Notes under the pieces: model-generated
What the model saw: the letters and a program-made list of their open reading frames with translations, nothing else
Told to the model about the DNA's origin: nothing
Databases searched by the model: none
Translations under genes and position numbers: made by a program
NCBI GenBank assembly: GCA_964016885.1
Contig: OZ024751.1
Location: forward strand, 18,786,001-18,850,000
Length of the DNA stretch: 64,000 nucleotides
Direction of reading: 5' to 3'
Origin: Eledone cirrhosa
Lineage: Eukaryota
Part shown: positions 3,241-55,330 of the stretch, in pieces
Layout: each line of letters starts with the position of its first letter
How positions within the stretch are numbered: the stretch's first letter is position 1

Positions 3241-4191
3241 CCTAATCAACAACACCTACGTTACTAAACAACCATGAAACTACCACCAACACCACTACCA
3301 GCTACATCACCATCAACACCACAAACAGCACCAAAACCACAACACTACCACCCACACCACCATCAACACCAATACCACTACCGATACCACTACCACCAGT
3401 ACGACTACCACCTACACCACAAACAGCACCAACACCAAAAACACTACCACCCACATCACCACAAACACCACACACAACCCCAACACCAACATCACTACCA
3501 AAACCACCACCACCACTACCACTACCACCTACACCATCACAAACACCACCACCAACACCATCACAAACACTAACACCACCACCATCACTACCAAACTACC
3601 ACCACTACCACCACTACCACCAACACCATCACTACCATACTACCATGACCACCAAACTACCCCCACCACCATCACTACCACCATCACCATCACTACCATA
3701 CTACCGCCAGCACCGCCACTACAACCAACACCATCACTACCAAACTACCAGCACCACCACTACAACCAACACCATCACTACCAAACTACCCCACTCCACC
3801 ACTACCAAACTACCCCACTCCGCCACTACCACCAACACCATCACTACCAAACTACTCCACCCCCACCCTCACTACCACTACCACCAACACCATCACTACC
3901 ATACTACCACCACCACTACCACCACTACCACCACTCCCACCCACCCCACCACCATCACCCCCACCCCAGCCCCCAACACCACCACCACTAACAACAACAA
4001 CAATTGTAACCAACACGATATCAACCGATAAGAAGTTAATAAGGACAACTTACATCGATCTGCCATTGAGATCAAAGGTGAAATCGGTGTAAACAGACTT
4101 TGACCAGTATATCACTATATATAGGCTTGACCATCACAACATTAATATATATCGTTGACCACCATAACACTAATATATAGTACTGACCATA

Positions 4192-6045: not shown

Positions 6046-6322
6046 TAGTTATGTAATAAAACAACATAAGATAATTATTTCATTTACCAGTGGTTTCTTG
6101 AACGCAAATGTTATGTCTGTCTTCAGTCGTCAGAATGAATAAATAACATGGTGTTTTTATTAGATATGGATTTTCTGACGACTGAAGACAGACATAACAC
6201 CTGCCTTCAAGAAACCACTGGTAAATGAAATAATTATCTTATGTTGTTTATTACATAACTAATAAGGTCTGTAGCCTTCATGTAGCAGTCTTTTTCCTGT
6301 ACCTTTCCAACGGAAATACTTC
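6046..6322. mobile_element. Fold-back PLE-type insert: arms 6046-6135 / 6173-6261, right tail; hammerhead core in each arm
   Basis: Arms are near-perfect reverse complements; minus strand of left arm reads TTCATT-CTGACGA-stem II-GAAAC-CACTG-GTA-AATGAA; (TA)n on both sides. Confidence 0.85.
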
Positions 6323-6338
6323 ATATATATATATATAT

Positions 6339-6736
6339 ATTAAGAAATAAACCAAAGAAGCCTTCAATACATCCAAAAGTCTTTATTAGCCAACAATGTT
6401 TCGTCCTATTAAGGACTCATCAGGGTAAGTAAAGCTATAAGAAGCACTATCGGCCAATACAAGCCAAAAACTCAGAAGAATGTATGTATACTCCATATTC
6501 TTCTTAGTTTTTGGCTTGTATTGGCCGATAGTGCTTCTTATAGCTTTACTTGCCCTGATGAGTCCTTAATAGGACGAAACATTGTTGGCTAATAAAGACT
6601 TTTGGATGTATTGAAGGCTTCTTTGGTTCATTTCTTAATTCTTCGGCTCTGTTTAATTACATTGAGCTATACCTTTACTGTCATTTCTATAATATGAAGA
6701 GGGTGTTTAACTCCAACACACTCTAGTATTTTAATT

Positions 6737-11489: not shown

Positions 11490-11550
11490 ATATATATATG
11501 TGTGTGTATATATATATATATAGATAGATATAGATATAGACATATAGATA

Positions 11551-11973
11551 GATAAATATAGACGGGTGTGTAAGATTGTGTATAGAAGATTATATTAATA
11601 AAAGGAATTCCAACTTTGTCTGATTTACTCATTTTATTTACAATCCTTAAAAATTTATAATGGTTTTATAATGAAATAGTATGATAGAATATTAAATGTT
11701 AAGTGTTAATTGAACAAGTACTTTCATGGTTTCGCACTCTTCAGGTTCATAATGTGTGGTGACAGTCAAGTTTGCAATTTTCAACAGTTGAAAATTGCAA
11801 ACTTGACTGTCACCACACATTATGAACCTGAAGATTGCGAAACCATGAAAGTACTTGTTCAATTAACACTTAACATTTAATATTCTATCATACTATTTCA
11901 TTATAAAACCATTATAAATTTTTAAGGATTGTAAATAAAACGAGTAAATCAGACAAAGTTGGAATTCCTTTTA

Positions 11974-11980
<7 letters not shown>
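11551..11980. mobile_element. Near-perfect 390 bp palindrome (arms 11591-11785 / 11787-11980) plus 40 bp left tail
   Basis: Centre TTTTCAAC-A-GTTGAAAA; about 2 mismatches; reduced hammerhead-like GAAC-CTGAAGA-TTGC-GAAAC-CATG at ~11824-11847; same family as 54476-54703. Confidence 0.92.
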
Positions 11981-12012
<32 letters not shown>

Positions 12013-15037: not shown

Positions 15038-15073
<36 letters not shown>

Positions 15074-15077
<4 letters not shown>

Positions 15078-15328
15078 TAAGACAGGGGGAAAGAAAAAAT
15101 GGCTTCACTTGTGCTTTCAACAAATTTATTTTCTTCACAAAATCCAAAAAGAATTTTTCTTAAAAAAAATTATTTTATAAATTAAGTTAATTTATAAAAT
15201 AATTTTTTGTAAGACAAATTCTTTTGGGATTTTGTGAAGAAAATAAATTTGTTGAAAGCACAAGTGAAGCCATTTTTTCTTCCCCCCTGTCTTAATATAC
15301 CTAACTGTACCAAGGATTACACACATTT

Positions 15329-32237: not shown

Positions 32238-32660
32238 TAAAAAAAATAGAGGTGTGACACCCGAGTTGTGATATATTAGTAAAAAGGAAAAGAAAATGCT
32301 GACAAATTTTTCCCAGTGAAAAATAGTTTAATTAGTAATAAGTATAAATTAGTAATAAGTATTGGTTAGTATTCAGTTTTAATTTTAAGTTTCTACCGGT
32401 TGCGCATTTCTAATGCTTTTCAAAAATAATTTTGAGATAGAGCGCCCGTGATGTTTGCTCTAATCAGATTAGAGCAAACATCACGGGCGCTCTATCTCAA
32501 AATTATTTTTGAAAAGCATTAGAAATGCGCAACCGGTAAAAACTTAAAACTAAAACTGAATACTAACCAATAATTATTACTAATTTATACTTATTCCTAA
32601 TTAAACTATTTTTCACTGGGAAAAATTTGTCAGCATTTTCTTTTCCTTTTTACTAATATA
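32238..32660. mobile_element. Near-perfect palindrome (arms 32272-32465 / 32467-32660) plus left tail
   Basis: Centre CTAATC-A-GATTAG; about 4 mismatches; degenerate hammerhead TTGAAAA-GCATT-AGA-AATGC-GCAAC-CG-GTA; (TA)n flanks. Confidence 0.92.
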
Positions 32661-32676
32661 TATATATATATATATA

Positions 32677-33116
32677 TACGATATATTAACAAATGGAAAC
32701 TATATTTATAAAACCATATTTATTTCATTATACATATTTCAAGGACACCAAGTTAAATTATGGTGTGCTTTCATCGGATAAAATATAATATAGAGCAGTT
32801 TTATAAATAAATAGTGACATACCCTTAAAGAATGCGACCATTTCTGTTGGAAGCTCGCGGGAAATGGTCGCATTCTTTAAGGGTATGTCACTATTTATTT
32901 ATAAAACTGCTCTATATTATATTTTATCTGATGAAAGCACACCATAATTTAACTTGGTGTCCTTGAAATATGTATAATGAAATAAATATGGTTTTATAAA
33001 TATAGTTTCCATTTGTTAATATATCGTATTTTTACTCCAATAATTTGTTGAGTGCTTTATATCAGTTATAAAAATATTTGCTTGTTGTATCCCAACAATT
33101 TAAATAGAACTTCTAC
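32677..33116. mobile_element. Fold-back pLTR insert (arms 32677-32844 / 32861-33028, ~88 bp right tail), related to the termini of the coding PLE
   Basis: Arms nearly identical; terminus and tail align with 34822-35060 and 38640-38788. Confidence 0.92.
32920..32984 (+). ncRNA. Type-I hammerhead ribozyme
   Basis: TATTTTAT-CTGATGA-AAG.ACACCA...TGGTGT.CTT-GAAAT-ATGT-ATA-ATGAAATA; 8 bp stem I; overlapping AATAAA. Confidence 0.8.
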
Positions 33117-34751: not shown

Positions 34752-35299
34752 AATAAACCTTAAAGGAATTACACCAGTCCAGCCTCCTGTTATTTTATAA
34801 TATATATATATATATATATATGCAAAGTTTTATTTAAATTGTTGGGTTAACAACGAGTAAATATTTATAACTGATATAAAAGCACTCAACAAGTATTTGG
34901 AGTATATTTACGATATTAAATAAATGGAAACTATACTTATAAAACCATATTTATTTCATTATATATATTTCAGGGATATCATATTAAAAAAATATGTTAT
35001 GCCTTCTTCAGACAAAATACAATATAAACAGTCTTATAAATAGATAGATTCGACATACCTTTCAACTTCGACTTCTATTTGAAAAGTTGATTTGGTAGTG
35101 AAAAAATATTAGGGACAGTTATAAAAAGAAAGAAAGAAAGAAAAACGAAGAAAAAGAAGAAATGCATGCAACTAAATAGAGAGAGATAGATATAGAGAGA
35201 TAGATAGAGAGAAGAAATTCATGTAAAGAAACAGAGAGAGATATATAGAGAGAGGAAAAAAACACAGAAGGAGATAGATAGAGAGAGAGAGAGAGAAGG

Positions 35300-35345
<46 letters not shown>

Positions 35346-36040
35346 TATAGAGAGATAGATATAGATAGAGATAGAGAGAAAGAAACTAGGTAGTTGGGCA
35401 CCAGTTGAGTGACGTATCAATGATATATTTATTTATTTATTTATTTATTTAGCTCTAGTATTAATGTAGAGAGAGATATATGTGGTTAAGAGAGAAAACA
35501 GCCGTTACATAGAGAGAAAAGAAAAATATCCAGACAAAAACGAGGCAGATTTAAAACACAATGTTTCATCAATGTAAAAAATATCAATTCGTATAAATAT
35601 CAGTATTCATGAATGAGACGCGTATCAATAATGTGTGAAAAATAATGATCATATGTCTAGTTTAAAATTCCTAGGTTTATATTAGAGTTGAGTTAAATAG
35701 AAGGTTATCCCAGATTTTATACTATATACATCCATGTGAATTTACGTGATCAGCTCTGCAAATTCATATTTCACACGAAAACATTCTCATTGTGCTATAA
35801 AAATTTAAGTATACATATATGTGTACATACACACAAATATATATAGAGTCTACATTAATTTTAACAATACTATTCATGTCTTTACTCTACATGATTATCG
35901 TTCAAGCATAAATAGAGAACAGATATCAATATATCAATAAAAATATCAGAAACAAAAAGTAAATAAAAAACAAAAAAATCAAAAAAATATTAAAAATAAA
36001 AATATTAAAAATATTAAAAATATTAAAATAAAACATAAAT

Positions 36041-37323
36041 AACATTACTATGGGATCATCCGACTCAGCTCAGGTAACTGACCTTGTGGGCCTATTTTTA
36101 ATCAATTCGCTGCATAGGAAAATACCCGGTGCTACCGGAGGTTTATATAGAGATGACATGCTTTTACTTATTGAAAATAATAACTCTGAACTAAATAGAA
36201 AAAGAAAACAAATTACACAATTTTTTAATTACTTTAATCTAAAAATAGAAATTGAGAATAACCATAGAATAGTCAATTTCCTAGATGTAACATTAAATCT
36301 CAACACATGTCTTCACTATCCATTTCACAAGTTGAATGAAAACTTAAACTATGTCAGCTTTAACTCTAACCACCCCAGATCTGTTAAAAATACTATAGTA
36401 AACTCTGTTCAAAATCGTATCTCTAGAATCTCATCTAATAAAAATATTTTCGACGAAAAAGCCCAGTATTACAATGAAGCGTTAGCTAGAGCAGGATATA
36501 GTGATAAAATTATGTACATAGATAATAATAGACAAACTAACCAAAATAACAACAATTTTAATTACGGCAACAACTTTAACAACTATAATAGAAAGCATTA
36601 CAATAATTCCAAAAGCCAAAAAAGAAATAGAACTAGGAATATAATATGTTTTGCCCCCCCCCCCCCCCTTTCTCACTAAACATTAAAACCCACATCGCTA
36701 AACTATTTTTTAATGCTCTTGATAATCGCTTCCCTAGAACACATAGGTATCACTCAATTTTCAATAGACATACTATAAAATTAACCTACTCATCCACCAA
36801 AAATTTAGCACAAAATATTAATAGAATAAATAATAGGAATTTAAAACCTAGCCAAAATACCGATAATAGCATAAATAATATCCAAGTTAACAAATGTAAC
36901 TGTAGAGATAGATCTAAATGTCCGTTAAATAACAATTGCTTAGTTAAAAATATAATATACAACTGTAATGTTAAAACGGACTTAAATTCTTTTAACTATG
37001 TTGGTTCCACCTCGACAGAATTTAAACTTCGCTATAATAACCACAAGAATTCTTTCACAGATCCAAGCAAAAAATCCTCAACATCACTATCAGGCCTACT
37101 CTGGCAACTTAGGCATGATAACGTTGGATATTCAACGGCTTGGAATATAGTCTCAAGAGGGATTCCTTTTAATTCATCCTCTGACACATGTGACCTCTGC
37201 GCGGAGGAGATATTCTTTATACTAAAATCTAAAAATTCCCTTAATTTACGGACAAATTTATTCAGTTGCTGCAGACATATATTGAACTCAACTTTTAAAT
37301 ATAAATATAAATTTAAAATGTAG
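36041..37323 (+). pseudogene. PLE reverse transcriptase (C-terminal half) fused to GIY-YIG endonuclease; one frameshift at C15 (36654-36668)
   Basis: TMGSSDSAQVTDLVG, GLYRDD, FLDVTLNL, SNHP thumb, then PPFSLNIKT, IKLTYS, CNCRDRSKC, NIIY...YVG, RYNNH, CDLCAEE, LN..CRH; no internal stops in either segment. Confidence 0.93.
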
Positions 37324-38396
37324 TATATTTAATTTGATTTATAATTATTTATGAAACTCGCCGATAAATCTTTCGATTCCTTTTTATTTTAAACATTCTT
37401 CATGAATAATTAAACTACCCTAAAAGCTGATGCTCCAAATATATCGAATAAATTTTACACTAGATAAACTTCTATATTAAATATAAGACCATCTGTAGAT
37501 CAAATGGGTATCCTAAACTTTTGGAATGTTTTCTGCTAGACAGGATTTGGTGAATAATTTTGGTTTTGTTTGCTTTTGATTCTGATGCTTATAACGAACT
37601 TGGCAATATATTGTCAATTAACTTTGAAGGGTTGATCTCTGTGGTTGATTTGCGGGGCATACTATGTTTTATTTTTATTTTAATATTTTTAATATTTTTA
37701 ATATTTTTATTTTTATTTTTATTTTTAATATTTTTTTGATTTTTTTTGTTTTTTATTTACTTTTTGTTTCTGATATTTTTATTGATATATTGATATCTGT
37801 TCTCTATTTATGCTTGAACGATAATCATGTAGAGTAAAGACATGAATAGTATTGTTAAAATTAATGTAGACTCTATATATATTTGTGTGTATGTACACAT
37901 ATATGTATACTTAAATTTTTATAGCACAATGAGAATGTTTTCGTGTGAAATATGAATTTGCAGAGCTGATCACGTAAATTCACATGGATGTATATAGTAT
38001 AAAATCTGGGATAACCTTCTATTTAACTCAACTCTAATATAAACCTAGGAATTTTAAACTAGACATATGATCATTATTTTTCACACATTATTGATACGCG
38101 TCTCATTCATGAATACTGATATTTATACGAATTGATATTTTTTACATTGATGAAACATAGTGTTTTAAATCTGCCTCGTTTTTGTCTGGATATTTTTCTT
38201 TTCTCTCTATGTAACGGCTGTTTTCTCTCTTAACCACATATATCTCTCTCTACATTAATACTAGAGCTAAATAAATAAATAAATAAATAAATATATCATT
38301 GATACGTCATTAAACTGGTGCCCAACTACCTAGTTTCTTTCTCTCTATCTCTATCTATATCTATCTCTCTATATTTTCTCTTTCTCTCTCCTCTCT

Positions 38397-38433
<37 letters not shown>

Positions 38434-38679
38434 TTCTGTGTTTTTTTCCTCTCTCTATATATCTCTCTCTGTTTCTTTACATGAATTTCTTCTCTCTATC
38501 TATCTCTCTATATCTATCTCTCTCTATTTAGTTGCATGCATTTCTTCTTTTTCTTCGTTTTTCTTTCTTTCTTTTTATAACTGTCCCTAATATTTTTTCA
38601 CTACCAAATCAACTTTTCAAATAGAAGTCGAAGTTGAAAGGTATGTCGAATCTATCTATTTATAAGACTGTTTATATTG

Positions 38680-38745
38680 TATTTTGTCTGAAGAAGGCAT
38701 AACATATCTTTAATATGATATCCCTGAAATATATATAATGAAATA
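38680..38745 (+). ncRNA. Hammerhead ribozyme of the coding PLE pLTR (mirror copy on the minus strand at 34952-35019)
   Basis: TATTTTGT-CTGAAGA-AGG...CCT-GAAAT-ATAT-ATA-ATGAAATA; stem II differs from 32920 but pairing is kept. Confidence 0.78.
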
Positions 38746-38830
38746 AATATGGTTTTATAAGTATAGTTTCCATTTATTTAATATCGTATATATATATATA
38801 TATTGTTGGTGTTTTTCAATAAACACATCT

Positions 38831-54432: not shown

Positions 54433-54463
<31 letters not shown>

Positions 54464-54475
54464 TAGATAAATATA

Positions 54476-54703
54476 CACGGATGTGTATGATTGTGTATAG
54501 AAGATTATATTAATAAGAGGAATTCTAACTTTGTCTGATTTACTCGTTTTATTTACAATCCTTTAAAATTTATAATGGTATTATAATGAAATAGTATGAT
54601 AGAATATTAAATGTTAAGTGTTAATTGAACAAGTACTTTCATGCTTTCGCAATCTTCAGGTTCATAATGTGTGGTGACAGTCAAGTTTGCAATTTTCAAC
54701 TGT
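54476..54703 (-). mobile_element. Unfolded single copy of the 11551-11980 family (arm plus tail)
   Basis: About 95% identical by eye to 11552-11785, including the tail. Confidence 0.9.
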
Positions 54704-54860
54704 AATGAGATGGGTAAATTTTGTACCTTATATACCGTGAAAAGTGGCTCCAGAATGCTAAATCTTGCAAACTGTATTTCGACCAATCGGTGTGTAGTTT
54801 CACTGAATTACTAAAGCTGATTGGTTTAGGCGTCACGGTTGGTTGAGCATGTCTAACGAC
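54703..54860 (-). promoter_or_regulatory. Candidate Pol II promoter: two CCAAT boxes, TATA box, initiator
   Basis: Minus strand: GTGACGC, AACCAATCAG (~54827-54818), GATTGG (~54788-54783), TATATAAG (54734-54727), TCATTACAGTT (54708-54698). Confidence 0.55.
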
Positions 54861-54964
54861 CACTATTTGATCCTATCCAAAGCATCAATTGTTTTGCTAT
54901 TTTTAGAAATGATGAAAATAGCATTTTCTAGTAATCATCACCATCACTTTTATTATTATTATTG

Positions 54965-54996
<32 letters not shown>

Positions 54997-55093
54997 GGTG
55001 GTGGTGGTCTTAGTCGACATGGTCGTAGTCATAGTCATAGTAGAAGTAATACCCTAAGCATTATTATTGTTCATTTAGCTTGGGTTTGAATTT

Positions 55094-55330
<237 letters not shown>

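Follow-up and report, generated by a model that had tools for sequence, protein, structure and literature searches.

Endonuclease-bearing (EN+) Penelope-like elements (PLEs) of the Neptune/Nematis type, in the account of Craig et al. (2021, PMC8557442), carry a reverse transcriptase (RT) with a C-terminal GIY-YIG endonuclease, a CX2-5CxxC linker and CCHH-type residues. The PLEs of that account have pseudo-LTRs (pLTRs) with a hammerhead, partial tandems, an inverted 5'-truncated copy, (TA)n targets and a 30-40-bp tail at one end; an ORF1 split off by a frameshift is listed for some PLE type in the legend to its Fig. 1. The function of the hammerhead is there called unclear, and work on tandem and inverted structures is called for. 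In Penelope of Drosophila virilis, as described by Schostak et al. (2008, PMC2377424), transcription starts within the pLTR from an internal, TATA-less promoter, the only mapped Penelope promoter in that account, which sees no obvious mechanism for pLTR regeneration. Pen2a of Adineta (Arkhipova et al. 2013, PMC3846280) is reported to have a putative TATA box and Inr; its inverted pLTR falls 37 bp short of the length of the direct ones.

The enzyme of Poseidon from Anolis carolinensis, according to the account of Frangieh et al. (2024, PMC11167929), cuts and extends both strands of AT-rich targets; synthesis begins at two internal sites, one at either end of the tail, with a template RNA that spans the pLTR-ORF junction; the hammerhead in its pLTR is described as dispensable in vitro, with 0 RNA-seq reads ending at the cut. 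Animal non-LTR retrozymes (bioRxiv 10.64898/2026.07.22.740005) are described as short, non-coding, hammerhead-bearing and pLTR-related. Known features of PLEs include an inverted pLTR with a tail, transcription from inside the pLTR and insertion at (TA)n targets, as described in PMC8557442, PMC3846280 and PMC2377424.

The element studied here, recognized from a locus at 54.5 kb of the window (the whole 64-kb stretch of DNA that was analysed), is a known kind of element with an unusually clear genomic record of RNA ends. Apart from the hammerhead, for which it has a hammerhead-like motif that lacks a conserved pair, it shares the above features of EN+ PLEs, the AT-rich targets and the two internal RT start sites (here putative) of Poseidon, the start within the pLTR of Penelope (also putative here) and the TATA and Inr of Pen2a, whose unequal pLTRs may be compared with the unequal arms reported below. 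Most copies have a fixed 5' end, at a putative TATA-driven start, for which no parallel was found in the account of PMC8557442. The promoter, internal in D. virilis, lies here upstream of the putative start and is lost from copies ending there; the RT start sites, in the ORF for Poseidon, would here be in the 5' leader; and copies pile up at the predicted hammerhead cut, whereas no Poseidon reads end there. Retrozymes are tandem arrays of hammerhead-bearing monomers; the copies sampled here stand alone or in head-to-head pairs and correspond to the pLTR of an element that is intact and autonomous, so they were not assigned to that class.

The literature search found no paper that reports genomic copies clustered both at a TATA-driven start and at a hammerhead cut (supplements or figures may show similar distributions), none on Penelope-like elements with ribosomal frameshift and Neptune, none on the Penelope pseudo-LTR with strand transfer or strong-stop, and none linking octopus Penelope with palindromes. 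The mode of PLE transposition is unsettled, and a young family with intact copies and thousands of insertions predicts the ends to the base: in the numbering given below, the RNA would start at +0 and be cut at +72/73, and RT would start at about +198 and +242.

A young PLE and its copy at 54.5 kb

Positions within the element are counted along the minus strand, +0 being the A at window position 54703. The copy and its promoter block comprise the following features.

54459-55097, minus strand: 5'-truncated PLE copy (ORF2 stub, complete 3' pseudo-LTR and tail), flanked by (TA)n tracts
55064-55096, minus strand: last ten codons and stop of the RT-GIY-YIG ORF, identical to the ORF2 C-terminus of copy L104
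54820-54824, minus strand: CCAAT box 1, retained in 59 of 69 promoter-bearing arms
54783-54787, plus strand: CCAAT box 2, inverted relative to the element, also retained in 59 of 69 promoter-bearing arms
54727-54734, minus strand: TATA box TATATAAG, its first T 31 nt before the pile-up base 54703
54698-54708, minus strand: initiator-like TCATT (54708-54704) and putative transcription start (54703, +0 to +5), at the 5' ends and exact folds of copies

This is an ordinary 5'-truncated PLE copy, which starts in (TA)n and has a full 3' pseudo-LTR. It is 92.5% identical to the 3' end of an ORF-bearing copy (L033), and 85% to L104. By tblastn, no ORF1 or ORF2 match was obtained in the 64-kb window at E<=1e-3, and nothing in the window reached the Rfam gathering score. 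The first-pass annotation had placed two CCAAT boxes and the TATA box on the minus strand: one CCAAT, the TATA, the TCATT and the 31-nt distance are real, while the second CCAAT is on the plus strand. The TATA consensus and the 31-nt spacing are preserved in two subfamilies with different letters (TATATAAG in one, TATAAAAG in another). The promoter of L104, from the youngest subfamily, has a second TATA-like 10-mer immediately upstream of the TATA box.

Upstream of the promoter block, copies of the family continue, via an (AAC)n/(AAT)n 3' UTR, into the part that codes for RT and GIY-YIG. In L104, a tandem with a period of 4,202 nt, two ORFs are intact: ORF1, whose ATG is at +282, and an overlapping RT-endonuclease ORF2 of 775 codons. 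In a Pfam search, ORF2 matched RVT_1 at E 2.9e-6, which falls short of the curated cut-off, and GIY-YIG at E 3.2e-6, which passes it; the GIY-YIG match covers residues 687-773 of 775. ORF1 gave no credible match. At E<=1e-30, 496 relatives were found, which carry the same Pfam families, the named ones being mostly from molluscs or mollusc-associated metagenomes. The element is thus a young endonuclease-bearing PLE, with the RT followed by GIY-YIG in one ORF, and it has pseudo-LTRs from partial tandems, inverted truncated copies and a tail on one side, the hallmarks of PLEs. Both flanks of copies are (TA)n, so that target-site duplications are unreadable.

The linker CNDNRCGTC, which fits CX2-5CxxC, the DKG and GLKF motifs, and a CxxC with two His in the endonuclease (CCHH-type) would place the element in the Neptune/Nematis type, by the linker and motif definitions given in PMC8557442. 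It is not of the Hydra clade, which has no CCHH, has DKT for DKG and does not conserve GxKF, nor a Naiad element, which has an N-terminal endonuclease and no hammerhead, the GIY-YIG being C-terminal here.

A slippery heptamer, U-UUU-UUA, lies at L104:2834-2840, in the ORF1/ORF2 overlap and in the ORF1 frame; a -1 shift there enters ORF2 before its conserved N-terminal motif. Of 19 aligned rows, 17 retain it unchanged; the rows include repeats of the same locus. Local folding downstream of the site gave no strong stem, and a search for a longer (fused) ORF1 homologue found none, which is weak evidence. A programmed frameshift is likely, with splicing as the alternative. A candidate active source lies at G000:C1:97368472-97381111, where this PLE forms a tandem array of four units, each about 4,188 nt long.

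The region at 54.5-54.9 kb had been proposed as a special donor, the unique gene of a 230-nt non-coding RNA. This is not supported, since the promoter block belongs to an autonomous PLE, as its 3' pseudo-LTR, and recurs with other copies, at least 1,371 arms keeping the promoter junction. A stand-alone non-coding RNA gene or SINE-like donor, with a unique locus or a few independent ones, was rejected on the same grounds of abundance and autonomous PLE origin. The 391-nt block that includes the promoter is a young repeat: it gave 1,950 candidates, and the copies scored, at least 40, were all at 97-100% identity. The tail 27-mer occurs at least 4,454 times in the 3.0-Gb genome, the promoter-joined 32-mer 1,178 times.

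Two pile-ups of 5' ends

The 5' ends were tallied in 90 of the first 100 tail-bearing matches on contig C1, corresponding to 89 insertions (L095 was dropped, being the same insertion as L094; L075, scored +68, is misaligned and really +150, and L079, unscored, is at +116). Of these 89 consecutive copies, 54 begin at -3 to +11, with 32 at -1/0; were the starts uniform over -149 to +190, the binomial p for such a concentration at -3 to +11 would be about 1e-57. The whole promoter is present in 17, one begins within -149 to -4 (at -93), and the remainder are spread across +12 to +190.

Across the genome, exact matches to the 32-nt fold junction number 359, against 0 for its reversed control. Among arms carrying an exact +40 to +66 anchor, promoter bases -11 to -9 are kept in 1,371 and missing in at least 2,629, a lower bound that leaves out the exact window-type fold; a like-sized control window further upstream gave 60 arms, about half of them point mutants. 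The depth of two contig runs of unstated kind on L104, a measure that cannot itself reveal starts, rises about tenfold at the +0 region. The expectation that fold points and 5' ends would pile up at 54703, and that the promoter was not copied, is thus borne out.

Many start-site copies are unfolded and joined directly to (TA)n or to flank, so the pile-up at +0 is not made by folding. No strong snap-back stem was found at +0, and the TA-rich TATA box has no pile-up in the C1 sample. From these data we infer that the CCAAT/TATA block directs Pol II to start at +0 to +5. The base before +0 is G in 34, C in 53 and A in 13 cases (hand count in the 100 matches listed of 181); microsatellite interruptions, usually G after T and C after A, confound the reading of these counts as a test for a cap G.

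The second pile-up coincides with a further feature of the copy.

54626-54664, minus strand: type I hammerhead-like motif, +39 to +77, with the predicted cut between 54631 and 54630 (+72/+73)

The predicted cut position, after +72, follows the numbering of the hammerhead consensus. The motif has a 5-bp stem I, a CUGAAGA core, a 3-bp stem II with a GAAA loop and a palindromic GUAC stem III, the last being present also in PLE pLTR hammerheads as described in PMC4209133. The G10.1-C11.1 pair, conserved according to that account, is missing, and the region folds no better than shuffles (z -0.2).

Breaks were scored at 60 loci taken from the 100 matches listed of 380 arms selected for a break in +45 to +96; of these loci, 14 with internal indels or duplications were set aside. 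In the resulting 46, 21 breaks are at +71 to +76 (p about 8e-9, against uniform over +45 to +96); six arms break exactly at +73, several being joined to unrelated flank. Positions +62, +79 and +86 have equal snap-back stems and show no peak. The class is a minor one, 5 of the 89 unselected C1 copies starting at +67 to +79. A palindrome of roughly 8.7 kb (L103) consists of two full-length elements folded at +72/73. In a further locus (L212, G000:C1:437043318), the arm starts exactly at +73 and follows a segment from within ORF2 that has the orientation of the arm, which suggests a template jump from the cut end.

The ends at +73 may derive from RNA cut by the hammerhead at its predicted position. 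If so, they are in vivo evidence for cleavage by a PLE hammerhead and for copying of the cut RNA. The genome likely records both where the RNA of the element starts and where it is cut.

Two 3' ends and the origin of the short copies

The 3' ends of the copies, and the palindrome at 11.6 kb, are described by the following features.

54504-54508, minus strand: putative first RT start site, where short arms end (+197 to +200); seen in 30 of 44 inverted arms
54459-54503, minus strand: tail of about 45 nt, on one arm only, equivalent to the PLE tail described in PMC11167929; its end is the putative second RT start site
11546-11788, minus strand: long arm of the palindrome, +0 to +242, with tail
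11784-11981, plus strand: short arm of the palindrome, +0 to +197, ending in (TA)n

The palindrome (11546-11981) is about 435 bp long; the 11.6 kb refers to its location and not to its length. Both arms start at the base equivalent to 54703, where the first-pass annotation had put the fold, and are identical at 191 of 193 positions. The view of the palindrome as a double cDNA is also supported, the best reading being two cDNAs that both reached the RNA start. Elsewhere, 30 of 44 inverted arms terminate at +198 to +200, opposite a partner that bears the 45-nt tail and was selected for it. Of 30 exact-fold loci, which were chosen regardless of the tail, 17 pair a long arm with a short one; the others are interrupted. 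Short palindromes in such numbers are potential sources of double-stranded RNA in the genome.

The family, the 4.2-kb full-length element, its copy numbers, the two pile-ups of 5' ends and the two 3' ends come directly from the analysis; the explanation that we consider probable as a whole is that the block is a PLE pseudo-LTR, and that the palindrome arose from two internally primed cDNAs off an RNA starting at 54703. The RNA would start at +0, driven by the CCAAT/TATA block of the pseudo-LTR. The enzyme of the element would use each strand of a (TA)n target to prime a cDNA; the two cDNAs would begin at two putative internal sites of the RNA and run off its 5' end, to be joined head to head. 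The short copies would be by-products of the element mRNA, the first RT start sites being only 200-245 nt from its 5' end, and are likely dead ends, because they carry no promoter.

None of the 54 start-site copies continues into ORF1. Among 30 rows of ORF1-joined copies, 4 start at -8 to -1, and 19 are seamless upstream of -10; these mostly seamless rows imply that a second route exists, without a break at +0. Possible forms of it are read-through of tandem arrays, such as the four-unit one on C1, a circular template, or transfer of a +0-ending cDNA to the 3' repeat of the RNA.

As to the template, we lean towards the mRNA of the element itself. The short copies might instead be supplied in trans by a separate RNA, about 245 nt long, that the promoters of many solo or 3' pseudo-LTRs would make. 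This corresponds to the non-autonomous retro-RNA of the first-pass annotation, but with hundreds of possible donors, and start site and enzyme would be the same as above. The 1,371 promoter-bearing arms, against 129 exact pLTR-ORF1 junctions, would suit such an RNA, as would the failure of all 54 start-site copies to reach ORF1; according to the accounts in PMC3846280 and PMC2377424, a pLTR is sufficient in trans, and transcription can be driven from a 3' pLTR. The short copies, however, have the main haplotypes of the promoter-bearing copies and no lineage of their own, and internal priming on the mRNA, as described in PMC11167929, yields the same product with no extra gene. We regard a separate RNA as possible, but not as the expected answer.

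A broader and more doubtful proposal is that the pseudo-LTR acts as a true LTR, with the CCAAT/TATA block as 'U3' and a transcribed, terminally repeated 'R' (+0 to +244), the short copies being aborted strong-stop cDNAs and the hammerhead-cut RNA a real template in vivo. A +0-ending cDNA, transferred to the matching 3' end of the RNA, would regain the promoter seamlessly, and hammerhead-cut RNA would template insertions up to full-length double ones folded at the cut. If true, this would explain pLTR regeneration in PLEs.

Self-priming (snap-back) of one strand, instead of two target-primed cDNAs, has been proposed for rotifer PLEs in the account of PMC3846280, and is in our view an improbable source of these palindromes. 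Some junctions are clear hairpin snap-backs, for instance at +27 and +73 to +77, and arms share haplotypes: the two arms of a pair differ on average by 1.0 (55 pairs, two of them spurious) versus 4.7 at random, and rare variants are sometimes common to both. This sharing also fits one RNA or source, or one cDNA, copied twice, or later arm-to-arm conversion. Snap-back of one cDNA would place the central A in the long arm only; among the 17 scored exact-fold loci it is part of the long arm in 8 but of the short arm in 9. Many arm pairs, moreover, are unequally truncated at the 5' end, some inverted arms being hundreds of bases longer than their partner; two primed cDNAs fit better, since snap-back of a single cDNA cannot give a second arm longer than the first.

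Still less probable is that the pile-up at +0 marks a structural stop or a recombination hot spot, and not a transcription start. A predicted 8-bp RNA hairpin spans +0 to +26, and TA microhomology at -1/0 suits (TA)n targets; but RT is expected to stall at the 3' foot of the hairpin, at +26 and not at +0, other TA-rich places have no peak, and a TATA box stands at -31 with conserved spacing.

That the 11.6-kb palindrome derives from the 54.5-kb copy itself is hardly credible: the two share the window, and the copy is 97.5% identical to the short arm, but this means five differences over 198 nt, while four other sampled copies (L003, L007, L013 and L015) are closer to the palindrome, differing from the short arm at only 3 sites, and two copies in 64 kb are unremarkable given the number of tail-bearing copies in the genome. 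The comparison of arm variants already largely refutes it: three variants common to both palindrome arms are absent from the 54.5-kb copy and from all other 206 sampled arms, and the 54.5-kb copy carries one variant missing from both arms.

Neighbouring repeats

Directly upstream of the studied copy, in the same (TA)n tract, lies a hammerhead-like stub of another family (55190-55300, minus strand). The window contains six further (TA)n-anchored palindromes or inverted pairs of unrelated sequence (6046-6261, 6339-6639, 15073-15299, 32271-32661, 32676-33029 and 34878-38816), which probably represent stubs from different PLE families built in the same way. CUGANGA...GAAA cores were observed in the (TA)n-anchored palindromes at 6046, 6339 and 32676, and at 38688.

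An abundant SINE-like repeat of about 190 nt is present in the window at 4190, 9350, 26750, 27300, 27530, 27810, 41140, 50530, 58120 and 61890, and is also found inserted in PLE copies, such as L008.
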